The notes under the pieces are model-generated. The model ran no database searches. It saw nothing but the letters and a program-made list of their open reading frames with translations, and had not been told where the DNA came from. From the IMG/VR virus record IMGVR_UViG_2541047931_000009: a DNA stretch of 15,450 nt, one strand, 5' to 3'. Below are positions 1 to 15,450 of the stretch, one piece after another (the stretch's first letter is position 1; each line of letters begins with the position of its first letter). The translations under genes were made by a program, and so were the position numbers. Source of the DNA: a virus. Lineage: Duplodnaviria; Heunggongvirae; Uroviricota; Caudoviricetes.

Positions 1-71
1 ACCAAAGCATGACATCTCTGTTTCGCACCGAAGGTGACACTTCTGCTTTGCGTTGACAGGAGAAGCAGGCT

Positions 72-227
72 ATGAAGCAGCAAAAGGCGATGTTAATCGC
101 CCTGATCGTCATCTGTTTAACCGTCATAGTGACGGCACTGGTAACGAGGAAAGACCTCTGCGAGGTACGAATCCGAACCGGCCAGACGGAGGTCGCTGTC
201 TTCACAGCTTACGAACCTGAGGAGTAA
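72..227 (+). CDS. hokD: Hok/Gef family small membrane toxin, 51 aa
   Basis: ATG 72 to TAA 225-227 translates to MKQQKAMLIALIVICLTVIVTALVTRKDLCEVRIRTGQTEVAVFTAYEPEE: one TM helix plus the conserved Hok C-terminal tail. Below the 60-aa cutoff of the ORF track. Confidence 0.9.
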   Translation: MKQQKAMLIALIVICLTVIVTALVTRKDLCEVRIRTGQTEVAVFTAYEPEE

Positions 228-295
228 GAGACCCGGCGGGGGAGAAATCCCTCGCCACCTCTGATGTGGCAGGCATCCTCAACGCACCCGCACTT

Positions 296-320
296 AACCC
301 GCTTCGGCGGGTTTTTGTTT
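296..320 (+). terminator. Rho-independent terminator after hokD
   Basis: Stem AACCCGC / GCGGGTT with TTCG loop (296-313) followed by TTTTGTTTTTATTTT. Confidence 0.6.
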
Positions 321-425
321 TTATTTTCAACGCGTTTGAAGTTCTGGACGGTGCCGGAATAGAATCAAAAATCTTGCGCGGGGCTGAACTCCCGCTGAGT
401 AACACCGTGCCACCGGAGAAAACCG

Positions 426-704
426 ATGGCACGCAACGCAAAATATTACAATTCTGATAATTCGCCCGTTCTTGCCTGCACGCACGGGCGGTATTCTCAC
501 GCATTCAAGTCTGAATGGTTCCAGCACCCTCCATGCACTGCAGAACAGGCCGAATGGCTGATTCATTCTTACCGCAGGCGCGGGTTCGAGGTTAAGAAAG
601 CTCTCAGTCTCGACTATCGGCACTGGATAATCTCTGTCAGGCTGCCTTATTCCGAACGCCCACCACGTGCGTCCCGCACTTTCCAGCAACGGATCTGGAG
701 GTAA
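426..704 (+). CDS. rem: Small prophage protein, 92 aa (rem-like position between hokD and ydfU)
   Basis: ATG 426 preceded by GGAGAAAA 6 nt upstream; stop TAA 702-704 lies 1 nt before the ydfU GTG start, suggesting translational coupling. Name assigned from position, from memory. Confidence 0.5.
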   Translation: MARNAKYYNSDNSPVLACTHGRYSHAFKSEWFQHPPCTAEQAEWLIHSYRRRGFEVKKALSLDYRHWIISVRLPYSERPPRASRTFQQRIWR

Positions 705-705
705 C

Positions 706-1755
706 GTGCGGGTATTACTTAGACCTGTTCTGGTGCCTGAGCTTGGGCTGGTGGTCCTTAAGCCGGGCCGTGAATCCATACAGATATTTCATAATCCTCG
801 AGTGCTGGTGGAACCGGAACCAAAAAGCATGCGTAATCTGCCATCCGGAGTCGTTCCTGCCGTTCGCCAGCCGCTGGCGGAAGACAAAACATTGCTGCCG
901 TTTTTTAGTAACGAACGGGTGATTCGTGCTGCTGGCGGCGTTGGCGCATTGTCCGACTGGCTATTACGTCATGTTACATCCTGCCAGTGGCCTAATGGCG
1001 ATTACCATCACACTGAAACAGTCATTCACCGTTATGGTACCGGCGCAATGGTGTTGTGCTGGCACTGCGACAACCAACTGCGTGACCAGACATCGGAATC
1101 ACTGGAGCTGCTTGCTCAACAAAATCTGACAGCATGGGTGATTGACGTCATCCGTCACGCAATAAGCGGTACGCAGGAGCGGGAATTATCTTTGGCTGAA
1201 TTATCCTGGTGGGCGGTCTGCAATCAGGTGGTGGATGCACTACCTGAGGCTGTATCGCGTCGTTCGCTGGGATTACCAGCGGAAAAAATCTGCTCGGTGT
1301 ACCGCGAAAGCGACATCGTACCGGGAGAGCAGACCGCCACCAGCATATTGAAACAACGCACAAAAAATCTTGCACCGTTGCCTTACGCCCACCAGCAACA
1401 AAAATCACCACAGGAAAAGACGGTGGTAAGCATCACCGTTGATCCAGAGTCTCCGGAATCTTTCATGAAGCTGCCTAAACGTCGCCGCTGGGTTAAGGAG
1501 AAATACACACGTTGGGTTAAGACACAGCCGTGTGCTTGCTGCGGTATGCCAGCCGACGATCCGCATCATCTGATTGGTCACGGGCAGGGCGGAATGGGAA
1601 CAAAAGCACATGATCTCTTTGTGTTGCCTTTGTGCAGAAAGCATCACAACGAGCTGCATACGGATACAGTGGCATTTGAAGATAAGTATGGCTCCCAACT
1701 GGAGCTGATATTTCGTTTTATCGATCGCGCGCTGGCAATTGGCGTACTGGCGTAA
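706..1755 (+). CDS. ydfU: DUF968 prophage protein with C-terminal HNH-like Cys/His motif, 349 aa
   Basis: GTG 706 with SD GGAGGT at 695-700, in frame with the 667 ORF of the track. C-terminal CACCG...DPHHLIGHG...CRKHHNELH motif. Length matches recalled YdfU. Confidence 0.8.
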   Translation: MRVLLRPVLVPELGLVVLKPGRESIQIFHNPRVLVEPEPKSMRNLPSGVVPAVRQPLAEDKTLLPFFSNERVIRAAGGVGALSDWLLRHVTSCQWPNGDYHHTETVIHRYGTGAMVLCWHCDNQLRDQTSESLELLAQQNLTAWVIDVIRHAISGTQERELSLAELSWWAVCNQVVDALPEAVSRRSLGLPAEKICSVYRESDIVPGEQTATSILKQRTKNLAPLPYAHQQQKSPQEKTVVSITVDPESPESFMKLPKRRRWVKEKYTRWVKTQPCACCGMPADDPHHLIGHGQGGMGTKAHDLFVLPLCRKHHNELHTDTVAFEDKYGSQLELIFRFIDRALAIGVLA

Positions 1756-1768
1756 GTGGAGAACGAGC

Positions 1769-2521
1769 ATGAACCTTGAAGCCTTACCAAAATATTACTC
1801 CCCAAAATCTCCAAAATTGAGCGATGACGCTCCAGCGACAGGCACCGGTTGTTTAACAATTACGGATGTAATGGCAGCGCAGGGGATGGTGCAGTCGAAA
1901 GCACCACTTGGGTTGGCCTTATTTCTGGCAAAAGTTGGTGTTCAGGACCCTCAGTTTGCGATTGAAGGCCTGCTAAATTACGCGATGGCACTGGATAACC
2001 CGACATTGAACAAATTGAGTGAAGAAATCCGGTTACAGATTATTCCTTACCTCGTGAGTTTTGCCTTTGCTGATTACTCCAGGTCTGCGGCAAGTAAGGC
2101 TCGCTGTGAGCATTGTTCAGGTACGGGATTTTATAATGTATTGCGCGAAGTGGTGAAACACTACAGACGCGGGGAATCTGTAATCAAGGAAGAATGGGTG
2201 AAGGAACTATGTCAGCATTGCCATGGTAAGGGCGAAGCCAGTACAGCGTGCAGAGGGTGTAAGGGTAAAGGGATTGTTCTGGATGAAAAAAGAACCCGGT
2301 TTCATGGCGTACCGGTATATAAGATTTGTGGGCGTTGTAATGGAAACCGGTTTAGTCGTTTACCGACCACGCTGGCACGACGTCATGTCCAGAAGCTGGT
2401 ACCAGACCTGACCGATTATCAGTGGTATAAGGGGTATGCGGACGTCATTGGTAAACTGGTAACAAAGTGCTGGCAGGAAGAAGCATACGCGGAAGCGCAA
2501 TTGAGGAAGGTGACGAGATAA
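1769..2521 (+). CDS. quuQ: Late-gene antiterminator Q family protein, 250 aa
   Basis: ATG 1769 with GGAG at 1758-1761; four Cys-pair motifs (CEHCSGTG, CQHCHGKG, CRGCKGKG, CGRCNGNR) suggest Zn binding; immediately followed by a promoter-like site and a strong terminator, as expected for Q. Confidence 0.8.
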   Translation: MNLEALPKYYSPKSPKLSDDAPATGTGCLTITDVMAAQGMVQSKAPLGLALFLAKVGVQDPQFAIEGLLNYAMALDNPTLNKLSEEIRLQIIPYLVSFAFADYSRSAASKARCEHCSGTGFYNVLREVVKHYRRGESVIKEEWVKELCQHCHGKGEASTACRGCKGKGIVLDEKRTRFHGVPVYKICGRCNGNRFSRLPTTLARRHVQKLVPDLTDYQWYKGYADVIGKLVTKCWQEEAYAEAQLRKVTR

Positions 2522-2552
2522 ATGATTTTTGCTGAAGATGGCGACATGATGT

Positions 2553-2581
2553 TTGCATTTTTCAAAAAATATGGATAAAAT
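2553..2581 (+). promoter_or_regulatory. Putative late promoter (PR-prime-like) downstream of Q
   Basis: TTGCAT (2553-2558), 17-nt spacer, TAAAAT (2576-2581); position analogous to lambda PR-prime/qut after the Q gene. Confidence 0.35.
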
Positions 2582-2626
2582 TTTTTCAACGATGGGCTTT
2601 GTATACCCGACGTTAAGAAAAAGTAG

Positions 2627-2650
2627 AAAACCCGCTGATGAGCGGGTTTT
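2627..2650 (+). terminator. Rho-independent terminator (tR-prime-like)
   Basis: Perfect 10-bp stem AAAACCCGCT / AGCGGGTTTT with GATG loop, then TTTTGTGCTTT. Confidence 0.7.
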
Positions 2651-2942
2651 GTGCTTTAAATGGGGCAATGGTAATGTTGAATCTCATCCCGGGACTCATG
2701 TCTGTTAACTTATTATTTAGCTGGTGACTTGGTTATTTGCCTGATGTTTAAAATGTTTTCTTCCAGTACAATGTCCCTAAACACAATGAGTCTGCTTATT
2801 ATATTATTAGCAGAGCTATTACGGCCAAAGTACAGCATAAGCTTTTAAAGCCAATCAACCAGTCATCAAGACAGACGGGGTTATTCATAAAAACTCTCCA
2901 TGTGTGATCCGATGGGGCCTGAAATTAAAGCTTTAATATAGC

Positions 2943-3155
2943 TCATGAAAGGTAAACATTGGCAGTTGAAGGGCCACGCAGACCATTTATCCGGCAAAAT
3001 TCCACGCGTAATCCGGTGGTAATTTCTTCTGCATCGCGGAGATTGAGCGCTGAAACATGAAGCTGGACATCGATACGACCATCGGATGGGGTGATAAGAC
3101 CCTTGCCGCTTTTGCCGTCAAAGGTTTTGACAATTCCTGTCATTTTACGGGACAA
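2943..3155 (-). CDS. cspF: Cold-shock protein family (CspA paralog), 70 aa
   Basis: Translation [39 protein letters not shown]... has the cold-shock-domain fold pattern; divergent from cspB. Confidence 0.9.
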
Positions 3156-3279
3156 AAAAATTCCTTAATACTGATAACTTGGCGCACTATACACACGTTC
3201 CTGAAGAAAGCTATAGTTTTTTGATGGGGTTGAAGATGGCTGGATGTCTAAAATAAACATTGCTTCATATGTTCAACTA

Positions 3280-3455
3280 TGCGTTAATGATTGCGTCGGT
3301 TTGAAGAACAGACGATATACGAAGTAGTTTACTAAAGCAGTTCTCATTTCAGGTGTTATTCACTTATTCCTTCTTTGAGTCTCTCCAATTAAGTACGAAG
3401 TCGTTTCTGTTATGCAAACCATTTATGCCGAAAGGCTCAAGTTAAGGAATGTAGA
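3280..3455 (+). promoter_or_regulatory. cspB promoter and long cold-shock 5-prime UTR (cold-box-like and upstream-box elements)
   Basis: ATGCGTTAATG core (3278-3290) shared with the cspI upstream region; CGGTTTGAAGAACAGACG (3297-3314) resembles the cspA cold box; GCCGAAAGGC (3427-3436) matches the cspA upstream box just 5-prime of SD AAGGA. Confidence 0.55.
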
Positions 3456-3671
3456 ATGTCAAATAAAATGACTGGTTTAGTAAAATGGTTTAACGCTGAT
3501 AAAGGTTTCGGCTTTATTTCTCCTGTTGATGGTAGTAAAGATGTGTTTGTGCATTTTTCTGCGATTCAGAATGATAATTATCGAACCTTATTTGAAGGTC
3601 AAAAGGTTACCTTCTCTATAGAGAGTGGTGCTAAAGGTCCTGCAGCAGCAAATGTCATCATTACTGATTAA
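3456..3671 (+). CDS. cspB: Cold-shock protein CspB, 71 aa
   Basis: [38 protein letters not shown]... with RNP1-like KGFGFI and RNP2-like VFVHF motifs. Confidence 0.93.
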
Positions 3672-3952
3672 AATTCATCGCTCGTCTGTATACGATAACG
3701 AAGAAGGCTGATGCCTGAGTAGAGATACGGACAGAGTAGTGAATATTGGATCTCTTTAATAAAAAGTAAGGAGGTCCAATACATGAAACAATGGCTAGCA
3801 TATTTGGCAAAATCTTAATCAGGAAAAGTATGCTAACCATTGTGGTGAAGTGCAGGTTTGCTGCATGAATAGTTTTACAGCAGAAGCTAACTGCTGGCAT
3901 GGCAAAACAAAGTGCGTAAGTGGATGACTCCCACAAAAAGCACCACAATCTC

Positions 3953-3975
3953 AAACCCGCTCAGGCGGGTTTTTT
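3953..3975 (+). terminator. Rho-independent terminator about 280 nt downstream of cspB
   Basis: Stem AAACCCGC / GCGGGTTT with TCAG loop, followed by TTTTTATTAT. Confidence 0.6.
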
Positions 3976-4034
3976 ATTATCTGCTTTAAATATATTATTA
4001 AAATATAAAAAATACTTGTTACTAATAAAATCAA

Positions 4035-4205
4035 TCAGGCTACAGCTTTAAGATTTGTCTGGAATACTTTGTTGCAATGAGGGCAGATCAAAAGGGCACC
4101 TTTTTGTACTCTTGAAAAACTGTGTTCTGACTCTTGGGTGCAGTTTGGGCAGGAACATTTAACGAGATAATTACGGCGTGATTTTGAGTTTTTACGTTCT
4201 GACAT
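4035..4205 (-). CDS. Small basic Zn-ribbon protein, 56 aa (CxxC...CxxC), unknown function
   Basis: Minus-strand ATG at 4205 preceded by SD AGGAAAAG at about 6 nt; MSERKNSKSRRNYLVKCSCPNCTQESEHSFSRVQKGALLICPHCNKVFQTNLKAVA. The track ORF (73 aa from 4256) has no SD at its start. Confidence 0.5.
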   Translation of the reverse strand: MSERKNSKSRRNYLVKCSCPNCTQESEHSFSRVQKGALLICPHCNKVFQTNLKAVA

Positions 4206-4424
4206 AGGCTTTTCCTGTATAAATGGCCGTATACAGTACACTAAATATGAAAACATTTCTCGTATTATTATTTTATATATGACTTTCTTTCAAAATAATT
4301 ACCCACATTTTTAATGTGTATGTTTTTTTAGCGCCGTTGAGAACAACGTGTGCTGTCAAAACTACCCCGTAGACTCCGATCTTTTCAAACATATTGCACC
4401 ATCCGTGTACATCGGGGTGAGGAT

Positions 4425-4640
4425 ATGAAATCAATGGATAAGTTAACAACAGGTGTTGCCTATGGCACATCGGCGGGTAATGCTGGTTTCTGGGCATTGC
4501 AGTTACTCGATAAAGTAACTCCGTCACAGTGGGCTGCAATCGGTGTGCTGGGTAGCCTGGTTTTTGGCCTGCTGACGTATCTGACAAATCTTTATTTCAA
4601 GATTAAAGAAGACAGGCGTAAGGCTGCGAGAGGAGAGTAA
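4425..4640 (+). CDS. essQ: Phage-21-type class II holin (pinholin) with dual-start motif, 71 aa
   Basis: [31 protein letters not shown]...: two TM segments, Met1-Lys-Ser-Met4 dual start, charged C-terminus; sits directly upstream of the endolysin. Confidence 0.85.
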
Positions 4641-4644
4641 TCCA

Positions 4645-4952
4645 ATGACTCAAGACTATGAACTGGTTGTGAAAGGAGTCCGTAATTTTGAGAATAAAGT
4701 TACGGTAACTGTAGCCTTACAGGACAAAGAACGCTTTGACGGTGAAATTTTTGACCTGGATGTCGCCATGGACCGTGTTGAAGGAGCTGCGCTGGAGTTT
4801 TATGAGGCAGCAGCCAGAAGGAGCGTCCGGCAAGTCTTCCTGGAAGTAGCAGAAAAATTGTCAGAAAAAGTTGAGTCTTATCTGCAGCATCAGTACTCCT
4901 TTAAGATTGAAAATCCTGCCAATAAGCACGAGCGTCCTCATCATAAATATCT

Positions 4953-4956
<4 letters not shown>
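4645..4956 (+). CDS. ydfR: DUF1327-type prophage protein, 103 aa
   Basis: ATG 4645 with SD GGAGAG; stop overlaps the rrrQ start (ATGA at 4953-4956). Confidence 0.8.
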
Positions 4957-5980
<1,024 letters not shown>

Positions 5981-6182
5981 GGTAATATTAAATCGGAACA
6001 TTTACATCGCGGAATGTAAAATTTAAATAAAAAGGACTCTTCCATGAGCCAAAATTCCTGAAATCTTAAGGGTAAGATAAAAGGTCTTAATCAGAATGAC
6101 ACGTTTTATTAATAAATAAAGCTATTCTTTCATTGCTGTGTTTTTCTTTACAAAAGTAATCCTTGCTATGGGTGGTTAATCA

Positions 6183-6343
6183 TGCGTTAATGGTGTTCTG
6201 GTTTGTTACAAATTTATCTGAAGCAGTCATTGTTATAATTTTATTATTTGTACCTCTTGAGATTTCCTTGTTGGTTTTTCTCTCTGATATTTTTTTTTCG
6301 GACCATTCTGCCCAAGGGCTAATTTCTTCAAAAGGTAATAATT
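6183..6343 (+). promoter_or_regulatory. cspI promoter and long 5-prime UTR
   Basis: Same ATGCGTTAATG core (6182-6192) as upstream of cspB; about 150-nt AT-rich leader; degenerate upstream-box-like GCCCAAGGGC near 6311-6320. Confidence 0.45.
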
Positions 6344-6556
6344 ATGTCTAACAAAATGACTGGTTTAGTGAAATGGTTTAACCCTGAAAAAGGTTTTGGT
6401 TTCATCACGCCGAAAGATGGCAGCAAAGATGTGTTTGTCCATTTCTCAGCAATTCAGAGCAACGATTTCAAAACATTAACTGAGAATCAGGAAGTTGAAT
6501 TTGGTATTGAGAACGGACCTAAAGGTCCTGCCGCTGTTCATGTTGTGGCGCTTTGA
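6344..6556 (+). CDS. cspI: Cold-shock protein CspI, 70 aa
   Basis: [38 protein letters not shown]...; paralog of cspB (first 13 codons nearly identical at nucleotide level). Confidence 0.93.
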
Positions 6557-6755
6557 GGTAGACAATATTACAAACCATATTCACTTTAGATGCCCGTGTT
6601 GTCATGGTTCCCAGTATAGAACATCATCTTTTGATGTTTCTGACATGAATCCTTTCGGGGCAAAATGTATCTTTTGTAAATCAATGATGATTACATTTGA
6701 TAATATTTCACAATACTTAAATGCCAGCCGTCTGTCGTTGGATTTAAAAAAGTGA
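6540..6755 (+). CDS. ynfQ: Small Zn-ribbon protein (CPCC...C..C), YmcF/YnfQ-like position next to a csp gene
   Basis: In-frame ATG 6540 overlaps the last 17 nt of cspI; [33 protein letters not shown] motif; strong terminator immediately downstream. Exact start uncertain. Confidence 0.4.
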
Positions 6756-6760
6756 AAATG

Positions 6761-6784
6761 AAGGCTCCTTCGGGAGCTTTTTTG
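6761..6784 (+). terminator. Rho-independent terminator with UUCG tetraloop
   Basis: Stem AAGGCTCC / GGGAGCTT around TTCG loop, followed by TTTTTT. Confidence 0.7.
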
Positions 6785-6903
6785 CTTGGTGTCTATTCGA
6801 TGGATACTCACATACTACGGTAACATCATGAAAAAAATCATAGTTTTTTTTTAACTCTGAACCAGCAGTGGTAGTGCCAGCGATGACTGGAGTTAACACC
6901 ATC

Positions 6904-7059
6904 ATGCGTGAATATCCAAATGGCGAAAAAACACACCTTACTGTAATGGCCGCAGGGTTTCCATCTCTGACCGGAGATCATAAAGTCATTTATGTAGCCG
7001 CGGATCGACATGTTACTTCAGAAGAAATTCTGGAAGCAGCAATAAGGCTCTTGAGTTGA
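6904..7059 (+). CDS. ynfN: Small prophage protein, 51 aa
   Basis: ATG 6904 gives MREYPNGEKTHLTVMAAGFPSLTGDHKVIYVAADRHVTSEEILEAAIRLLS; matches recalled YnfN length and sequence. The track ORF starts upstream at 6868. Confidence 0.6.
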   Translation: MREYPNGEKTHLTVMAAGFPSLTGDHKVIYVAADRHVTSEEILEAAIRLLS

Positions 7060-7230
7060 TTTGATGCTATTGCATTGATAATTCAGGAAAATTCTCTTTG
7101 TCTGTTTGTGTAAAATTTAGACTATCGTATGTTGATTATTGCGATGTTTCATCTTATCTTTTACACGTTTGCACCATATAATCGACTTACTGTGTAACTG
7201 GAAAGTCATAACAGACTAAAAGAGGAAATG

Positions 7231-7404
7231 ATGAATATTGAAAACTTAAAAACAAAAGCAGAAGCAGATATTTCTGAATATATAACAAAAAAAATTATTG
7301 AACTTAAGAAAAAGACCGGGAAAGAAGTTACCAGTATTCAGTTTACCGCACGGGAAAAAATGACGGGTCTTGAAAGCTATGATGTCAAGATTAATTTAAT
7401 CTGA
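7231..7404 (+). CDS. gnsB: GnsA/GnsB family small protein, 57 aa
   Basis: ATG 7231 preceded by AGAGGAAA; MNIENLKTKAEADISEYITKKIIELKKKTGKEVTSIQFTAREKMTGLESYDVKINLI; below the track cutoff. Confidence 0.85.
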   Translation: MNIENLKTKAEADISEYITKKIIELKKKTGKEVTSIQFTAREKMTGLESYDVKINLI

Positions 7405-7433
7405 TGTATTCAATAATAAAATTTATCCATAAA

Positions 7434-7453
7434 CCTCGTTTTTACGGGGTTTT
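7434..7453 (+). terminator. Rho-independent terminator after gnsB
   Basis: Stem CCTCGT / ACGGGG with TTTT loop, followed by TTTTGTT. Confidence 0.5.
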
Positions 7454-7555
7454 GTTATATTTGAATGGTTCCGAATATCTAAATCACAATTGTTGATGGT
7501 TTTTATTAAACCAATGCAGTCCGGCTCAGGAGTGAGAGAAGCCGGACGTTATGGT

Positions 7556-7966
7556 TTAGCGTGGTAAGATCTGTGTAGTTTTCTGGATGCTTTCAGTAAA
7601 TAGTAATGAATTATCAAAGGTATAGTAATATCTTTTTTGTTCGTGGATATTTGTAACCCACCGAAAAACTCCTGCTTTAGCAAGGTTTCTTCTGTATTCC
7701 TGAAATGTGATCTCTCTGGATTTCAGCTTATTAGAGGTCGTTTCTATAAGATGCCTATCCTTTGAAAATTTGACAGACACAATGTTTTTTAGGCCCTTTA
7801 ATAACACTGTATTATCATTTTTTAATACAATATGAACATTCTCTGTGGCTAAATAGTAAATGTAATGTGAGACATTGTGACGTTTTAGCTCAGAATAAAA
7901 CCATTGATAGTTTAAATCGTTTCGAACTTTATCAAATATTTGTTTAAAAATGACTACCTGATCCAT
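7556..7966 (-). CDS. ydfO: DUF1398 (YbcV/YdfO family) prophage protein, 136 aa
   Basis: Minus-strand ATG at 7966 (MDQVVIFKQ...) preceded by GGAAGG; the track start at 7981 adds 5 codons without a better SD. Confidence 0.8.
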
Positions 7967-8023
7967 AGATAAACCTTCCATGTGATATGAGGGGGCGTAG
8001 TCTGCACGATTATCTAAATTGCT

Positions 8024-8197
8024 TCAATCTGGTCTGACCTGTTTTCTGAGCAATTCAGTAATGTCACTCTTTTCTTTGTTTGCTTCAGAAGAAACTCTTT
8101 TTTCTGAGCACAGTCTCCGGCGGCAGGCTTCAATGACCCAGGCTGAGAAATTCCCGGACCCTTTTTGCTCAAGAGCGATGTTAATTTGTTCAATCAT
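8024..8197 (-). pseudogene. ynfO: Small ORF (57 aa from internal ATG) whose 5-prime region is replaced by the IS5 end; ynfO-like by position
   Basis: The 83-aa track ORF draws its first 23 codons from IS5 terminal sequence (8206-8275); the native part starts at the IS5 junction. Upstream region and possibly the N-terminus are lost. Confidence 0.4.
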
Positions 8198-8205
8198 TTG
8201 GTTAG

Positions 8206-9400
<1,195 letters not shown>

Positions 9401-9417
9401 TTAACGATTCACTGGAT

Positions 9418-10671
9418 ATGCTTGCTGGCTTTTCGCCTGGTTATAAGCAAATAACTGTAGGTGATGATGTTATTAAAATGCCATCCGATAAGGTTGTTAG
9501 CTTCAAACGCGCATCAGGTGCAACATACATTAATAAATCAGGAGTATTAACCGTTGCTGAAGTTGACGAACCGCGATTTGAACGAGAAGGTTTGCTGATT
9601 GAAGGACAAAGAACCAACTATCATCTTAATTCACTTACGCCATCTAAGTGGGGAGCTACAACAAGTGTAACTATAACAGAAAGTGGTGTTGATGAGTTTG
9701 GCTTTACTTATGGGCGGTTTCAAATAAAGGACGAAAAAATTGGGACAAATACGACAATGAATATCGCTGCGGTTTCAGGAGGAAGAGGTGTCGATGTTAC
9801 TGGAACTGAAAAGTATGTTACAACATCATGTCGTGTAAAAAGCGATAGTGCTAATATACAATGTCGTATAAGATTTGAAAGATATGACGGGTCCGCATAT
9901 TTTTATCTGGCAGATGCATATCTTAATATAACAGATATGTCCATTAGGAAAACGGGAGGAGGGGCTGCAAGAATAACCGCCCGAGCGGAGAAAGAATCTA
10001 ATGGATGGATTTATTTCGAGGTTACATATCAATCTGAAGCTATTGATAATATGGTTGGCTCTCAGATCCAAATTGCTCCACCTGTTTCACCTGGAACTTA
10101 TTTGGGCGGGGAATATTTGGATGTTACGACACCACAATTTGAAGGCGGCTCATGCGCATCATCTTTTATCATTTCCGATACAGTTGCATCAACGCGAGCA
10201 AGCGATATTGTTACATTGCCTTGTAAAAATAACATGGCCAGCAAACCTTTAACCTGCATGGTTGAAGTGAATAAAAATTGGTCTATAGCACCAAATTCCG
10301 CGCCTAGAATTTATGATATAACAGGATTTAAAACAAAAGACGACGCTTTTGTTTTTGCATTCAGAAATACAGCAGGTAGTGTAGGAACTCCATATGTTCA
10401 ATTTGGTAATCCAATATCATTTCCACCTGGAAATTACCCAAGAAAGATTATCGCTGTATATAGAATAAAAAGCGATGGCAAGTTTCAGGCTGGCTGCAAT
10501 GGGGTTTTATCAACACCAGCATCAACAACGTGGAAGAGTGTTAGTGGTGCTACAGGTATAAGGATTGGAGGCCAGACTACAGCCGGCTTACGTCATTTAT
10601 TTGGTTATATCAGGAATTTTAGAATATGGCATAAAGAATTAACCGATGCGCAAATGGGAGAGATAATATAA
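9418..10671 (+). CDS. Tail-fibre distal (receptor-binding) segment with C-terminal LamG/concanavalin-like domain; 5-prime truncated by IS5 (417 aa remain)
   Basis: Reading frame is open from the IS5 junction (stop at 9403-9405 lies in the flank); C-terminus ...GLRHLFGYIRNFRIWHKELTDAQMGEII is a typical LamG-domain ending; sits in the tail-fibre position before tfa and pin. Confidence 0.55.
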   Translation: MLAGFSPGYKQITVGDDVIKMPSDKVVSFKRASGATYINKSGVLTVAEVDEPRFEREGLLIEGQRTNYHLNSLTPSKWGATTSVTITESGVDEFGFTYGRFQIKDEKIGTNTTMNIAAVSGGRGVDVTGTEKYVTTSCRVKSDSANIQCRIRFERYDGSAYFYLADAYLNITDMSIRKTGGGAARITARAEKESNGWIYFEVTYQSEAIDNMVGSQIQIAPPVSPGTYLGGEYLDVTTPQFEGGSCASSFIISDTVASTRASDIVTLPCKNNMASKPLTCMVEVNKNWSIAPNSAPRIYDITGFKTKDDAFVFAFRNTAGSVGTPYVQFGNPISFPPGNYPRKIIAVYRIKSDGKFQAGCNGVLSTPASTTWKSVSGATGIRIGGQTTAGLRHLFGYIRNFRIWHKELTDAQMGEII

Positions 10672-10952
10672 TGCGAGATTTAATTATCAAATTCACAGAC
10701 AAGGCCGACTTTTCGGCCTTTATGAAGAGTGCTGGCTATTATGATGACGAGTCGATGCAGGATGATATTCTTATTGACGTGATAGGTAACGTGTACAAAG
10801 AAACCGGAGAACTTACTGAAGATGGCGAGCCGGTATGTGTTAAGGAAGACGGATATTTTGTAAACGTGCGCATCATTAATGATGCAAAAAAATCGTCAAT
10901 ATTCGATAAATACGCGGTTGTTGTTGAGCATCAACTTCGTGGCTGGATGTGA
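10671..10952 (+). CDS. Hypothetical acidic protein, 93 aa, translationally coupled to the fibre gene
   Basis: ATG overlaps the upstream stop (TAATG at 10669-10673); MRDLIIKFTDKADFSAFMKSAGYYDDESMQDD...; no recognisable motif. Confidence 0.5.
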   Translation: MRDLIIKFTDKADFSAFMKSAGYYDDESMQDDILIDVIGNVYKETGELTEDGEPVCVKEDGYFVNVRIINDAKKSSIFDKYAVVVEHQLRGWM

Positions 10953-10961
10953 GGCAGGAAA

Positions 10962-11666
10962 ATGGCTACATCGACAGTAATTCCAGGAGATATCACCAAG
11001 CTAAAGGGGGATGTCAGTAAAGCTAAGGAAGATATTTCATCAATTAGCAGAAAAGTATCAACGCTTCAGACTGAGATGACCAGTGCAAAGCAGGATATCA
11101 GCTCCAGATACACAAAAACTGAAGTTGATAATAAGCTGAAAAACAAAGTGGAAGTGAACGATCTGGAAAGTGGTCGTTATGGCGGAGATTTTTATCCACT
11201 GACAGGTCGTGAAGCGTTTTATTTATGGAATTTGGCCACGACTACAGCGGCGGCAAACCTTTATCTTAATCCTGACCGTGCAATTTCGTCTGTGCTGCGG
11301 TCAACATCGTCTATCCGCTATAAACATTCAGTAGAGACAATAGATTCAGAGCACGCCGATCTCATTTTCAGGATGCGCCCTGTGTGGTACAGGTCGCAAT
11401 GCGAAAATGACAGGCGTGACTGGGGATTCTACGGATTGATTGCCGAGGAAGTAGGAGAAATTGCTCCTCAGTTTGTACACTGGCGACCAGCTAACGAAGA
11501 TGATGCTCCTGAAGCTATTTCCAGCAATGGCCTTGTTGCCGAAGGTGTAATGTACGAACGTCTGGTTGTTCCACTGATTCACCATATCCAGAAACTGACT
11601 GAAAGAGTTGATGAACTTGAGTCAGAATTAAAGTTGTTATTAACTTCCCGAAGCGATATTAGATAA
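10962..11666 (+). CDS. Short fibre-like protein: N-terminal coiled coil plus C-terminal peptidase-S74-like intramolecular chaperone domain, 234 aa
   Basis: Heptad-like N-terminus (DITKLKGDVSKAKEDISSISRKVSTLQTEMTSAKQDIS); C-terminal block SIRYKHS...FRMRPVWY...GFYGLIAEEVGEIAPQFV...YERLVVPLIHHIQKLTERVDELESEL resembles the self-cleaving chaperone domain of endosialidase and T5-type fibres. Confidence 0.6.
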   Translation: MATSTVIPGDITKLKGDVSKAKEDISSISRKVSTLQTEMTSAKQDISSRYTKTEVDNKLKNKVEVNDLESGRYGGDFYPLTGREAFYLWNLATTTAAANLYLNPDRAISSVLRSTSSIRYKHSVETIDSEHADLIFRMRPVWYRSQCENDRRDWGFYGLIAEEVGEIAPQFVHWRPANEDDAPEAISSNGLVAEGVMYERLVVPLIHHIQKLTERVDELESELKLLLTSRSDIR

Positions 11667-11676
11667 AGGAGGAGTA

Positions 11677-11970
11677 ATGGATATAACACCTTTTCTTCAT
11701 GCGCTTTGTGCTGTGGCTGCGCAGACACTGGTTGGTCTTTTTACCGGAAACTGGGCTTATGGGGCGATAGCTGGTTGTACGTTCTTCATTGCGCGTGAAC
11801 ACACCCAGGCAGAATATCGCTGGATTGAAATGTTCGGGCATGGCAAGCGGATTAACATGCCGTGGTGGGGCGGTTTTGATCCGCGTGTTTGGGATGTGGC
11901 AAGCCTGATGGATTTTGCTGTGCCGGTGGTGGCGTGTCTGCTGATCTGGCTGTTGGTTAATCGTGGGTGA
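11677..11970 (+). CDS. Small integral membrane protein, 97 aa, about 3 TM segments, unknown function
   Basis: Strong SD AAGGAGGAG 5 nt before ATG 11677; hydrophobic segments FLHALCAVAAQTLVGLF, WAYGAIAGCTFFIA, LMDFAVPVVACLLIWLLV. Confidence 0.6.
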   Translation: MDITPFLHALCAVAAQTLVGLFTGNWAYGAIAGCTFFIAREHTQAEYRWIEMFGHGKRINMPWWGGFDPRVWDVASLMDFAVPVVACLLIWLLVNRG

Positions 11971-11980
11971 AAAAAGGTGA

Positions 11981-12100
11981 GCTGTATATGCAACGGAGGA
12001 AGAAACCCCGTTGCTGGAAGCCAGGAAAAAGTATCGGGTGTTGCTGAACCGTGTTGATACGTCAACTGCACAGGATATTGAATGGCCAGCACTGCCGTAG
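11981..12100 (+). pseudogene. Relic 3-prime end of a tail-fibre assembly (tfa) gene, last ~39 codons only
   Basis: Frame from 11981 to TAG 12098-12100 reads [39 protein letters not shown], closely matching the recalled lambda Tfa C-terminus (...[29 protein letters not shown]); an in-frame TGA lies at 11978-11980 just upstream. Confidence 0.6.
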
Positions 12101-12197
12101 GGTAAAACATATAAATTCTATAATTAGATGTATCTTTCCATTTACGGCAAGGAAGGGGGCTTGGAAGACGTAAAGCATCTCACACCGAGATTATTTT

Positions 12198-12788
12198 TTA
12201 TATGTCAGGTGTCTGAAGTTTTGCTTTGGCTCTTAAAATGGTTTGCCGCGAGGTTTTGAATTCCCGGGCAATGGCACTTATACTTACACCTGACTTAATC
12301 CGTTCGAATACCACCTGTTTCTGTTCTTCATTTAACACAGGTGGTCGACCAAAACGTTTCCCTGCGCCCCGGGCTCTTACTATCCCGGAATGAGTGCGTT
12401 CAAGTAAAAGGTCTCGTTCAAATTCAGCGACTGCTGAAATTACTTGCATCATCATTTTTCCTGTTGGACTGGTCAGGTCAATGCCCCCCAATGCTAAGCA
12501 ATGCACTCTGATACCTGTTTCGGTCAGTTGTTCCACTGTTTTCCTGATATCCATTGCATTACAACCAAGGCGATCCAATTTTGTCACAATCAATTGATCA
12601 CCACATTTCAGGCGAGCAAGCAACCGGTTAAAACCAGGACGCTCACTGGTTGCTGCTGAGCCGCTAATGTGTTCTTCGATTATTTGCTGAGGTTTGATTT
12701 TAAAACCTGCACTTTCGATTTCCCGGCGTTGATTTTCGGTGGTCTGATCCAGCGTTGATATCCGACAGTAAGCAAAAATTCGAGACAT
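12198..12788 (-). CDS. pinQ: Serine recombinase (resolvase/invertase family), 196 aa
   Basis: N-terminal catalytic region [15 protein letters not shown]... (active-site Ser context), LDRLGCN motif, C-terminal HTH ([20 protein letters not shown]); convergent with the fibre module. Confidence 0.88.
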
Positions 12789-13103
12789 AGTGAGACTCTA
12801 TACGAAATTGGTGTTCATATCATAATGCATCTCAGAAAATAATTTTGATTATTTTTGTGCATATTTGTATGTACACGTTCGAAAATAAACGAATGCGTAT
12901 GCAACCCCGTAATTTTGGTGAGACCCAAAATCGATTTTGTGAAAAATGGCTTTAACTCGGTTTGTTTTTCGAGTTCCAGGCGGACTCAAGGAAGAAGAAT
13001 AGTGTTGCGTGTTATTTTAACCAGATTTCAAGTTGTTTGGTCGTGGAAAAGTGGAGCAAAATGTTGTTAAAGTGGAAAATGATAAAAAAGTAAGTTAATT
13101 ATA

Positions 13104-13337
13104 TTACATTTTACCATTTAAATTTTGGTTGTCTTTAAGAACTGATATCGCTGTTTGTAATAATTCTTTGTTATCCAGCCATGATTTTTTCTTTATGTTT
13201 CCTTCAATGTAATCAAGCAATGTTCTGGTATTGATAGGTCTTCCCTGTTTTGCTACTTCCACTACAGCATCCCCTAGGATAATTCTTACTTCAGGAAGCT
13301 GCGCAGGGAACCACTTTAGGGTGTCTTTTGATTTCAT
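13104..13337 (-). CDS. ydfK: Small prophage protein (YdfK/YnaE family), 77 aa
   Basis: Minus-strand ATG at 13337 (MKSKDTLKWF...) preceded by AAGGAA 7 nt upstream; the track ORF start at 13370 has no SD. Confidence 0.7.
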   Translation of the reverse strand: MKSKDTLKWFPAQLPEVRIILGDAVVEVAKQGRPINTRTLLDYIEGNIKKKSWLDNKELLQTAISVLKDNQNLNGKM

Positions 13338-14034
13338 GAAGATATTCCTTAAAATATTATTGATTTTCATTGCGATATTGTATGTCTGATTCAGGATATG
13401 TTGACTTATACATCGGTTTTGTCTGGGTTATTGGATATGCCAATCCCTAATTTTATTAGGGCATGACTAAAAATGCTGAATATGATAAGGAGAGAAGTGA
13501 TTATCAGTATGCTGTTCATATAGCCTCGAATTAGTAATGTGTTATATATGATATAGTTGACGATTTTTATCTTGGGTGTTCTTAAAGTTCGTAGATAAAC
13601 ATTGTCGTTTCAGGTATACAGGAATGCTAACAGGTGGCAGCAAAAATCAGGCGGTTTATGGCGCAAGCTGAAGCGGCAACTGCAAACTATCTTATGCAGA
13701 GACTCTACACGGATTGGGTTTAAAAGTATACATAGATAACAGTTTTTATCTGAAGAAGAAAAATATCAAGGTGATATAGCCTATATGCCTTTGATGCGGA
13801 GGAATGAATGTGATGGGAGTGATGTATCTGAATAGTTGAAAAACCGCAGACACGCCTTATGCAAGAACGTGCTGCGGTTGGCTGGTAAATTTTTCGATAG
13901 TGTGTGTATTGAATGATTTCCAGCCGTTCTTGATTTTACGCATAAATCCATGAAAAAACCACTTATCTGTTGGGGAGTTTTTTTGGGGCATATATGGGAC
14001 AGAAATAGGCCCCAGATAGACACTGAGATCGAAC

Positions 14035-14122
14035 TCAGGATGCTTTTTAAAAAATGCAACTATCTGAAAAAACCTAGATCAGGATGCTTTTTAAAAAATG
14101 CAACTATCTGAAAAAACCTAGA
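14035..14122. repeat. Perfect tandem direct repeat, 2 x 44 bp
   Basis: TCAGGATGCTTTTTAAAAAATGCAACTATCTGAAAAAACCTAGA occurs at 14035-14078 and again at 14079-14122; a degenerate third CAGGATGGG follows near 14139. Confidence 0.9.
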
Positions 14123-14166
14123 AAACGCCAAGGGAACCACAGGATGGGAAAAAACACCTGTGAATT

Positions 14167-15450
14167 ATGGATTTCCAGTTATATTCGCTCGGCGCAGCGT
14201 TAGTGTTTCATGAAATATTTTTTCCTGAATCATCAACGGCAATGGCGTTAATTCTGGCAATGGGAACCTACGGTGCAGGTTATGTGGCGCGTATTGTCGG
14301 AGCATTTATTTTCGGCAAAATGGGCGACAGAATAGGGCGTAAAAAAGTGCTCTTTATTACCATCACCATGATGGGGATCTGTACCACCTTAATTGGTGTG
14401 TTACCGACCTATGCACAGATTGGTGTTTTTGCACCCATCTTGCTGGTGACGTTGCGTATTATTCAGGGGTTGGGTGCAGGTGCGGAAATTTCCGGTGCCG
14501 GTACGATGCTGGCGGAATATGCGCCAAAAGGTAAGCGCGGAATTATCTCCTCATTTGTGGCTATGGGAACTAACTGCGGAACCTTGAGCGCAACGGCAAT
14601 CTGGGCCTTTATGTTCTTCATTCTCAGTAAAGAGGAACTGCTGGCGTGGGGATGGCGTATACCGTTCCTGGCGAGCGTTGTCGTGATGGTCTTTGCTATC
14701 TGGTTGCGTATGAATCTGAAAGAAAGCCCGGTCTTTGAGAAGGTTAACGACAGTAACCAACCGACAGCAAAACCTGCACCTGCTGGTAGCATGTTCCAGA
14801 GCAAATCCTTCTGGCTGGCAACAGGGCTGCGTTTTGGTCAGGCGGGTAACTCCGGGTTAATTCAGACTTTCCTTGCAGGCTATTTAGTGCAGACGTTATT
14901 GTTTAACAAAGCAATTCCAACAGATGCATTGATGATCAGTTCGATTCTCGGCTTTATGACCATTCCGTTCCTTGGTTGGTTATCCGATAAAATTGGTCGC
15001 CGGATCCCGTATATTATTATGAATACCTCCGCGATTGTGCTGGCATGGCCAATGCTTTCTATCATTGTAGATAAAAGCTATGCCCCGAGCACCATTATGG
15101 TTGCACTGATTGTGATTCATAACTGTGCGGTGCTGGGATTATTTGCTCTGGAAAACATTACCATGGCAGAAATGTTCGGCTGTAAAAACCGCTTTACCCG
15201 GATGGCTATTTCTAAAGAAATTGGTGGTCTTATCGCTTCCGGTTTTGGTCCTATCCTGGCGGGTATTTTCTGCACCATGACGGAATCCTGGTATCCGATC
15301 GCCATTATGATCATGGCATATTCAGTGATTGGTTTAATCTCTGCGCTGAAAATGCCAGAGGTGAAAGACCGTGATTTAAGTGCGCTGGAAGACGCTGCGG
15401 AAGATCAACCGCGTGTTGTAAGAGCTGCGCAACCTTCCAGAAGTCTGTAA
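14167..15450 (+). CDS. ydfJ: MFS transporter (metabolite:H+ symporter family), N-terminally truncated host gene, 427 aa
   Basis: 12-TM-type hydropathy and the MFS loop motif GKMGDRIGRKK; the ORF begins inside what should be TM1 (MDFQLYSLGAALVFHEIFFP aligns with internal residues of ShiA-type transporters), so about 30 N-terminal residues are missing. Confidence 0.85.
   Translation: MDFQLYSLGAALVFHEIFFPESSTAMALILAMGTYGAGYVARIVGAFIFGKMGDRIGRKKVLFITITMMGICTTLIGVLPTYAQIGVFAPILLVTLRIIQGLGAGAEISGAGTMLAEYAPKGKRGIISSFVAMGTNCGTLSATAIWAFMFFILSKEELLAWGWRIPFLASVVVMVFAIWLRMNLKESPVFEKVNDSNQPTAKPAPAGSMFQSKSFWLATGLRFGQAGNSGLIQTFLAGYLVQTLLFNKAIPTDALMISSILGFMTIPFLGWLSDKIGRRIPYIIMNTSAIVLAWPMLSIIVDKSYAPSTIMVALIVIHNCAVLGLFALENITMAEMFGCKNRFTRMAISKEIGGLIASGFGPILAGIFCTMTESWYPIAIMIMAYSVIGLISALKMPEVKDRDLSALEDAAEDQPRVVRAAQPSRSL

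Follow-up and report, generated by a model that had tools for sequence, protein, structure and literature searches.

The 15,450-nucleotide stretch of viral DNA analysed in this study (IMG/VR record IMGVR_UViG_2541047931_000009; the whole stretch is hereafter called the window) comes from a cryptic lambdoid prophage of Escherichia coli of the Qin type, whose right half it forms, adjoining a truncated ydfJ gene. Between the right end of an IS5 element and the convergent pinQ gene, at 9401-12100, the window carries a cassette of four open reading frames (ORFs), a fibre gene clipped at its 5' end and genes for proteins of 93, 234 and 97 amino acids (aa), followed by the end of a tfa gene. We hold with moderate confidence that a Qin-type lambdoid prophage has decayed here, that the region represents its right arm and that it contains two separable things, a side-tail-fibre module and an independent gene for a 97-aa membrane protein, with the roles proposed for them below. 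The anatomy of the region, its homology and distribution, the purifying selection on its genes and its recombination boundary are shown by the analysis.

An earlier interpretation made from the letters alone, here called the sequence-only reading, had described a clipped fibre, a TAATG overlap, an S74 domain, a 97-aa gene with a Shine-Dalgarno sequence, the end of a tfa gene and a convergent pin gene, and our analysis found each of these where it had been placed. The same reading took the four genes as a mosaic tail-fibre/accessory cassette; our comparisons do not support four independent accessory functions or an unusual cassette. The stretch 9401-12100 is 100% identical in E. coli B, BL21, REL606 and C, and the cassette is common in sequenced phages. 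Its first three ORFs (fibre, 93-aa and 234-aa) form one ordinary side-tail-fibre module that has already been sequenced in phages, and the 97-aa gene is a separate unit, inherited independently of that module. All four ORFs match PHROG families (E values from 1e-44 to 1e-168) and the ratio of non-synonymous to synonymous substitutions (dN/dS) is below 0.5 in most comparisons, which argues that they are real genes and not chance ORFs.

The sequence-only reading had also allowed that all four genes might belong to one known fibre operon. About three-quarters of the cassette fits that description, and the 97-aa gene lies outside it. The proposal that the cassette is the best candidate in the window for an undescribed accessory function stands for the 97-aa gene and falls for the other genes, which make up the fibre module. 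For an undescribed function the latter gene makes a well-grounded candidate, and its distribution is much wider than the letters alone could reveal.

The side-tail-fibre module

The order of a fibre gene, a gene for a protein of ~92-93 aa and a gene for an S74 protein is found in the lambdoid phages PhiR49_1, IdasGreatGrand and HannyBb, in the virulent T1-like phage tuinn and in the virulent T5-like phage IrisVonRoten. For IrisVonRoten, an AlphaFold-based prediction, not an experiment, describes Gp22 as a proximal fibre from which a galectin-like C-terminal domain protrudes and Gp24 as a distal fibre that is attached to Gp22 and carries a C-terminal intramolecular chaperone (the BASEL-II paper, PMC11990801). 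The proximal fibre of the window has 76% identity to Gp22 in an alignment of 424 residues that takes in the last 423 residues of Gp22, galectin-like end included. Of the 792 codons present in the intact Stf of E. coli C it keeps 422, corresponding to residues 371-792 at 100% identity, and the N-terminal 370 codons, responsible for tail attachment, are gone. The frame is open from 9401/9403 at the IS5 end, has its first ATG at 9418 and stops at 10671. The fibre matches phrog_1419 ('tail protein', E 3.5e-168) and its GTA/head-spike-fibre domain (NF048003) scores above its own cut-off, while the LamG match (PF13385, residues 331-412, E 2e-5) reaches 25.2 bits, slightly under the gathering score of 27.6 bits. 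With a headless fibre and no tail genes in the prophage, the fibre module in the window is a dead relic, unable to work.

A homologue of the 93-aa protein, with 40-87% identity, directly follows a LamG-tipped fibre in all eight phages and prophages checked, the virulent tuinn and IrisVonRoten included, and the idea that this protein is a free-standing moron was abandoned. Because its start is coupled to the fibre stop and because it is kept in virulent phages, the 93-aa protein is probably the cognate partner of the LamG-tipped fibre, either an assembly chaperone or a small fibre subunit. It would serve as a dedicated folding or assembly partner of the fibre, in the role that Tfa has for lambda Stf. 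In phage 21 and PhiR41_1 a 92-aa homologue and then the membrane gene come after the LamG-tipped fibre, and no S74 gene is annotated in between (an absence confirmed by BLAST for phage 21 only), which indicates that the 93-aa protein pairs with the proximal and not with the distal fibre. The protein is acidic (isoelectric point 4.45; 19 aspartate plus glutamate residues against 11 lysine plus arginine), an alpha/beta fold is predicted by AlphaFold2 with a pLDDT score of 79, and searches of Pfam, NCBIfam, PADLOC and structures gave no fold or family match. Its gene is present in 988 of 5426 complete E. coli genomes.

The 234-aa protein appears to be a minimal distal fibre, since the receptor-binding domains of the longer versions are missing. 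Its N-terminus, MATSTVIPGDITKLK, is common to the 343-aa protein of HannyBb and to the tuinn and IrisVonRoten Gp24 proteins, and all of them combine the N-terminal motif MATSTVIPxDITKLK with a chaperone bearing a Ser-x4-Lys dyad. The Peptidase_S74 domain (PF13884) lies at residues 116-172 with 27.5 bits against a cut-off of 22 bits, weak coiled-coil-type matches are found on either side of it, and the protein aligns with the C-terminal end of the phrog_3299 profile. The predicted Ser116/Lys121 dyad, in T-S116-S-I-R-Y-K121, aligns with T-S-G-I-E-Y-K of LtfA, SDRDLK of HannyBb and SDSRLK of Gp24; the 234-aa protein has the S-x-x-R-x-K pattern at the putative cleavage site. Among PDB entries, LtfA of DT57C (8hqz_d) is the nearest relative, through its chaperone end. 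When compared with Gp24, only the N-terminal ~15-20 residues and the chaperone region align, with no counterpart of Gp24 residues ~30-455, and the two receptor-binding domains (RBD) of the distal fibre, RBD1 (Gp12-like) and RBD2 (T5-like), are not present in the 234-aa protein. We propose that the protein would dock on the proximal fibre through its conserved N-terminal motif and trimerise with the help of the S74 domain, which is predicted to be cut off afterwards at Ser116 by autocleavage.

Three points speak against the roles proposed for the two smaller products of the module. The structure search recognised no chaperone fold in the 93-aa model, the protein has no profile similarity to Tfa or TfaQ, and the 234-aa protein could be a degenerate stub from which the receptor-binding domains of its longer relatives have gone.

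In tuinn, the S74 distal-fibre gene (tuinn locus 6565-7302) forms one frame with a single in-frame stop and is annotated as ORFs of 166 and 45 aa; a nonsense mutation, an error in sequencing or readthrough could account for the stop. The 45-aa ORF was considered as a truncated homologue of the 97-aa protein and rejected, as BLAST identified it as the C-terminal end of the tuinn S74 gene.

The tight packing of the four genes, the absence of an assigned function for the small proteins and the replacement of K-12 stfQ-tfaQ by the cassette would also agree with a different arrangement, in which the 93-aa and 97-aa genes, perhaps joined by the S74 protein, make up a cassette for accessory functions or superinfection exclusion that came in beside the fibre as a single swapped unit. 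We regard this as improbable, given that the 93-aa and S74 genes are kept in order in the lateral-fibre loci of virulent T1-like and T5-like phages, and that the 97-aa gene is inherited independently, phage 21 having the 93-aa and 97-aa genes without S74. The fibre part of the cassette is ordinary, another case of tail-fibre modules exchanged at conserved tfa/chaperone sequences and then eroded by insertion sequences. The 93-aa partner, conserved from lambdoid to T1-like and T5-like phages, is not discussed in PMC11990801, and the engineering or expression of LamG-tipped fibres probably requires it.

The 97-aa membrane protein and its genomic contexts

The 97-aa ORF is preceded by TAAAGGAGGAGTAATG, with the Shine-Dalgarno sequence AGGAGG, and the AlphaFold2 model of its product (pLDDT 92.5) has helices at residues 4-23, 26-53 and 74-96. 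The family comprises 579 homologues; among representatives of 50%-identity clusters, 435 clusters were recovered at E <= 0.001, all of them stand-alone proteins of ~90-120 aa. In 37 sequences reaching Aeromonas and Comamonas, 25 residues are invariant, and the core motif reads G/A-R-E-H-x-Q-A-E-Y-R-W-I ... M-P-W-W-G-G-F-D-x-R-x-W ... L-D-x-x-x-P. The dN/dS of the gene is 0.14-0.35, with 0.14 against a P22-like copy at a dS of 0.9, and the family is under strong purifying selection. The gene was found in 1900 of 5426 complete E. coli genomes (~35%), with a median of two copies and about twice the frequency of the 93-aa gene. It is among the commonest uncharacterised E. coli prophage genes and is carried by BL21 and REL606.

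The sequence-only reading could place no motif in either small protein. For the 93-aa protein this has been superseded by its probable assignment as a fibre partner, in phrog_1361, and for the 97-aa protein it remains valid, as membership of a PHROG family is all that was obtained. The latter protein has no Pfam or NCBIfam match, its profile search against the PDB returned 0 matches, the fold searches were uninformative (family members or noise only in BFVD), and no literature was found under the name 'Ybl63' or under its RefSeq accessions. When 31 diverse members of the family were scanned against Pfam, no consistent assignment emerged: the most frequent match was PhoR, in four of them, and 21 other families, Phage_holin_8 included, were matched in one member each.

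The gene is absent from tuinn and IrisVonRoten and is present without an S74 gene in phage 21. In Leclercia homologues come after the S74 fibres of HP1/P2-like prophages, in an Aeromonas prophage after a fibre without S74, in Salmonella after pectate-lyase tailspikes, in E. coli after a GDSL-esterase tailspike and in a Comamonas prophage after gpJ. They also occur at the tailspikes of Cobetia phage Carin-5 and, in P22-like coliphages, between tailspike and integrase, once beside the OafA O-acetylase. In the Halomonas phage phiHAP-1 the homologue stands between the fibre-assembly gene and the sheath gene, exactly the site at which P2 carries Z/fun. The phages concerned are sipho-, myo- and podoviruses. 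The 97-aa protein stays ~60% identical across Escherichia, Aeromonas and Comamonas, and the receptor-binding proteins encoded upstream are unrelated. In Comamonas a 2520-aa gpJ is followed by five small ORFs in a row, all in one direction (locus 5766-7521); the homologue is embedded among them, and four of the five have no PHROG match.

In the P22-like phage 611R6 (locus 3345-3458) a 37-codon 3' remnant of a lambdoid S74 fibre gene lies just before the membrane gene, and in the P22-like phage Gally (locus 3426-3500) a 3' remnant of 65-75 nucleotides of an S74 fibre gene precedes it. These remnants show that the membrane gene arrived by recombination along with the end of the S74 gene, and they document that the pair has passed between the genomes of siphoviruses and podoviruses. 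Linked to the 3' ends of receptor-binding genes, the 97-aa gene has probably travelled from phage to phage as a unit.

Many of these positions are classical moron sites, namely the tailspike/integrase gap of P22-like phages, the place after the fibre genes of P2/HP1-like phages and the end of the lambdoid stf operon, and the position of the window copy corroborates the earlier remark that the gene occupies a typical superinfection-exclusion or moron site. The gap between tailspike and integrase in P22-like phages is known as a seroconversion slot (PMC8787464). Since the positions coincide with those of classical conversion and exclusion genes, we favour envelope-directed exclusion or lysogenic conversion as the activity of the 97-aa protein, and give this reading nearly an even chance. 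Its likeliest role would be superinfection exclusion or the modulation of surface-glycan biogenesis. Because ~60% identity is kept while the neighbouring receptor-binding proteins are unrelated, the protein would act on a conserved component of the host envelope and not on a phage-specific receptor, and it could not be a receptor-specific mask of the Llp/Cor type. The Kapi1 gene hyp24, a tested candidate seroconversion gene in the tailspike/integrase gap, was examined as a homologue and rejected, being a 34-aa ORF on the opposite strand.

Several findings count against exclusion or conversion, and some of them would fit a lytic-cycle factor tied to receptor-binding proteins better than a moron expressed in the lysogen. 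Such a factor might shut down or alter surface glycans late in infection, allowing the progeny to avoid debris, or form a membrane platform for the maturation of fibres or tailspikes. The start of the 97-aa gene abuts or overlaps the stop of the upstream receptor-binding or fibre-assembly gene in four contexts (JEP4, the Leclercia and Aeromonas HP1-like prophages and phiHAP-1), which suggests late co-expression with virion genes and not lysogen expression. Consensus scans of the window gave no promoter-like or terminator-like site around 11677-11970. Homologues lie between tailspike genes in the 154-kb Cobetia phage Carin-5 and in a Salmonella element, and the linkage of the gene to S74-bearing receptor-binding proteins or to their 3' remnants is recurrent. 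We rank a lytic-cycle role second for this protein, and unlikely: the gene is absent from virulent phages with the same fibre module, the upstream proteins share no domain that the 97-aa protein could recognise, and the P22-like copies occupy the seroconversion slot. In Gally, a terminator-like hairpin with a 9-bp stem and a promoter-like site were detected by consensus scan between the tailspike gene and the homologue, which stands behind the hairpin.

A stand-alone chromosomal copy in Aeromonas rivipollensis (locus 6001-6309; 102 aa, 57% identical), outside any recognisable prophage, tells against a lytic-cycle factor and likewise against a phage exclusion or conversion gene. Its neighbours are housekeeping genes, for two lipid A acyltransferases, a RIO1 kinase and Pirin, with no phage genes within 6 kb. 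Exclusion or conversion is further called into question by the absence of a PADLOC match to any defence family and by conflicting topologies: the count of lysine plus arginine residues under a three-span model places the conserved 34-residue loop in the cytoplasm, whereas the TMHMM prediction of the phage 21 annotators gives two spans with both ends inside.

The size of the protein and its three predicted helices also recall class I holins. In one E. coli prophage the gene is directly upstream of a holin-holin-endolysin-Rz cassette, and one distant family member has a weak Phage_holin_8 match (E 0.0036). A holin or another lysis-timing membrane protein is very improbable all the same, as the window protein matches no holin family and is not beside lysis genes in 14 of 15 contexts. 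Qin has its own holin, lysozyme and Rz genes elsewhere, both in K-12 and here (window 4645-5980), and the 34-residue polar loop of the 97-aa protein, with its ~20 invariant residues, is unlike the weakly conserved holins.

A bolder form of the exclusion or conversion reading, which we find rather unlikely, is that the 97-aa protein is the founding member of an unrecognised and widespread class of small inner-membrane proteins (PHROG 1443/Ybl63) that alter a conserved envelope process. The candidate processes would be O-antigen ligation or polymerisation, undecaprenyl phosphate-linked glycan synthesis and the entry of phage DNA, and if this were true, exclusion or conversion would be independent of receptor type. 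More generally, if the protein excludes phages or alters lipopolysaccharide, this would explain why its gene keeps the company of so many unrelated receptor-binding genes.

Mosaic origin of the locus

The comparison with K-12 MG1655 Qin showed 99.9% identity over window positions 1-8210, from rem/hokD via cspB, the lysis genes and cspI to ynfO. Homology with K-12 ends at 8210 and restarts at 11989, 111 nucleotides before the tfaQ stop (K-12 locus position 4422), and the K-12 equivalent of IS5 and the cassette is nohA-stfQ-tfaQ. The layout is unlike that of stfQ-tfaQ in K-12, as the sequence-only reading had stated. On the other side, E. coli B (BL21, REL606) and E. coli C are 99.9% identical to window positions 9401-14078. 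The earlier proposal of a module swap with its boundary in the conserved 3' end of tfa is supported by this comparison of sequences: the boundary is real, as K-12 homology resumes inside tfaQ. The tfa remnant itself was confirmed and is labelled partial tfa by RefSeq in BL21 and C; its length is 36 codons plus the stop and not ~39 codons. The live phage HannyBb matches window positions 11676-14078 at 98%, through the end of the prophage attachment site at 14078. Since the stub, pin and the right arm are 98% identical in HannyBb, the tfa stub is an old feature of the phage lineage and not an accident of one strain.

Table 1. Position of the features of the cassette and its borders in the window.
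Feature	Coordinates	Strand	Description
IS5	8206-9400	+	Transposase ORF 8238-9254; left boundary of the cassette; truncates ynfO (left) and the fibre gene (right)
Side-tail (proximal) fibre, 3' 422 codons	9401-10671	+	Head-spike-fibre-type domain and C-terminal LamG/galectin-like domain
93-aa acidic alpha/beta protein (phrog_1361)	10671-10952	+	Start overlaps the fibre stop as TAATG
234-aa short distal fibre (putative)	10962-11666	+	N-terminal anchor motif, coiled coil, short tip, C-terminal Peptidase_S74 chaperone
97-aa three-helix membrane protein (PHROG 1443; UniRef name Ybl63)	11677-11970	+	AGGAGG Shine-Dalgarno; function unassigned
tfa remnant (last 36 codons plus stop)	11990-12100	+	PHROG tail-fibre-assembly matches; recombination boundary with K-12-type stfQ-tfaQ
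pinQ serine invertase	12198-12788	-	Resolvase and HTH_7 domains; convergent with the cassette; annotated pinQ

IS5 is the joint between the K-12-like left arm and the B/C-like right arm. Its inverted-repeat pair was detected at 8201-8222 and 9384-9405, the right repeat finishing at 9400 (..CTTATTCGCACCTTCC). The flanking tetranucleotides are unequal, TTAG on the left and TTAA on the right, and there is therefore no target-site duplication. The unequal flanks and the junction of two different arms are suggestive of a deletion mediated by IS5, or of two copies of IS5 having recombined, more than of a simple insertion. The truncated ynfO is a minus-strand ORF at 8024-8275 that runs into IS5. The exact arrangement of the window, with the left part of a K-12-type Qin, IS5 and the fibre cut at this point, was found in none of the 5,426 complete E. 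coli genomes. Strain 300490 carries an IS5 at another site of this fibre gene, and in B strains an IS3 is present upstream in place of IS5; the IS3 of the B and C strains and the IS5 of strain 300490 are independent hits on one and the same fibre region.

This repeated damage by insertion sequences bears on whether anything in the cassette is still active. With the fibre truncated by IS5, a prophage lacking head and tail genes, insertion sequences that hit the fibre gene independently in other strains and no promoter-like site before the 97-aa gene, the whole cassette, the 97-aa gene included, may be inert prophage debris in its present host, and we see this as a substantial although minor possibility. 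The three small ORFs are nevertheless intact and 100% identical in several lineages, and the 97-aa family is under purifying selection, which, however, may act in live phages rather than in this host.

The pinQ gene is intact and turns its 3' end, not its 5' end, towards the fibre genes. No plausible crossover inverted repeats of a Pin-invertible segment (at least 14 nucleotides) were detected within 7000-14200. A perfect 44-bp tandem duplication (TCAGGATGCTTTTTAAAAAATGCAACTATCTGAAAAAACCTAGA, twice) lies at 14035-14122, ~45 bp upstream of the truncated ydfJ ORF; it spans position 14078, the end of HannyBb homology, and is single-copy in K-12, BL21 and E. coli C. Two RNA elements of the cspA thermoregulator type scored above the Rfam gathering score, at 3295-3687 and 6197-6583, where the cspB-like and cspI-like genes of Qin are located, and no Rfam RNA was found in the cassette region.

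Comparison with known systems

The closest parallel to the fibre module is the lateral-fibre locus of IrisVonRoten (Bas32, Tequintavirus), in which the Gp22 fibre, Gp23 (92 aa) and the Gp24 S74 fibre follow in the same order. The 93-aa protein is 40% identical to Gp23, and in both distal fibres the motif M-x-T-x-TVIP-x-DITKLK is present at the N-terminus and an intramolecular chaperone at the C-terminus. In contrast, Gp24 is a T-shaped protein of 574 aa with two receptor-binding domains and the 234-aa window protein has neither; IrisVonRoten has no 97-aa membrane gene, and the window copy of the module is truncated and resides in a cryptic prophage. The branched L-shaped fibres of the T5-like phage DT57C, LtfA and LtfB (PMC4728585; PDB 8hqz), are also two-protein fibres whose distal parts end in an autocleaving Peptidase_S74 domain, and the 234-aa protein aligns with the chaperone region of LtfA and with its YTKTEVD coiled-coil repeats. 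They differ in that both DT57C proteins carry S74 and no small gene lies between them, whereas in the window a LamG-type domain closes the proximal fibre and the 93-aa gene comes next.

The K-12 stfQ-tfaQ pair, comparable to lambda stf-tfa, is located in the same prophage and in the same place before pinQ, shares the last 111 nucleotides of tfa and likewise consists of a fibre gene with a coupled small gene. The fibre tip is unrelated, however, and the window adds a distal fibre and a membrane gene. No intact Tfa-family gene of a lambda-type Stf/Tfa pair stands directly after the window fibre, where just the last 36 tfa codons remain.

For the 97-aa gene, the known systems are accessory genes beside receptor-binding genes, such as llp of T5, cor of T1 and phi80, Z/fun of P2 and gp15 of HK97. 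A further case is Iap of phage D3, described in PMC4815439 as a small membrane inhibitor of the O-antigen polymerase. All of these are small envelope proteins coded beside or at the end of a block of adsorption genes, as is the 97-aa protein, which differs from them in having no sequence or fold similarity, no lipobox in its sequence and a putative activity. It differs also from Llp and Cor in showing no sequence covariation with the receptor-binding protein next to it. The Tai tail-assembly-inhibition systems were considered as a match and rejected, since they are sited upstream of packaging genes and target gpJ.

Finally, both parts of the cassette have their counterpart in phage 21, a live phage that differs from the window in having no S74 distal fibre gene. 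Its genes CPT_21_22 to 24 encode a side tail fibre, a 92-aa protein and a 'putative membrane protein' with 48%, 51% and 94% identity, respectively, to the window proteins, and DNA homology between the two extends from 11665 into the tfa remnant.

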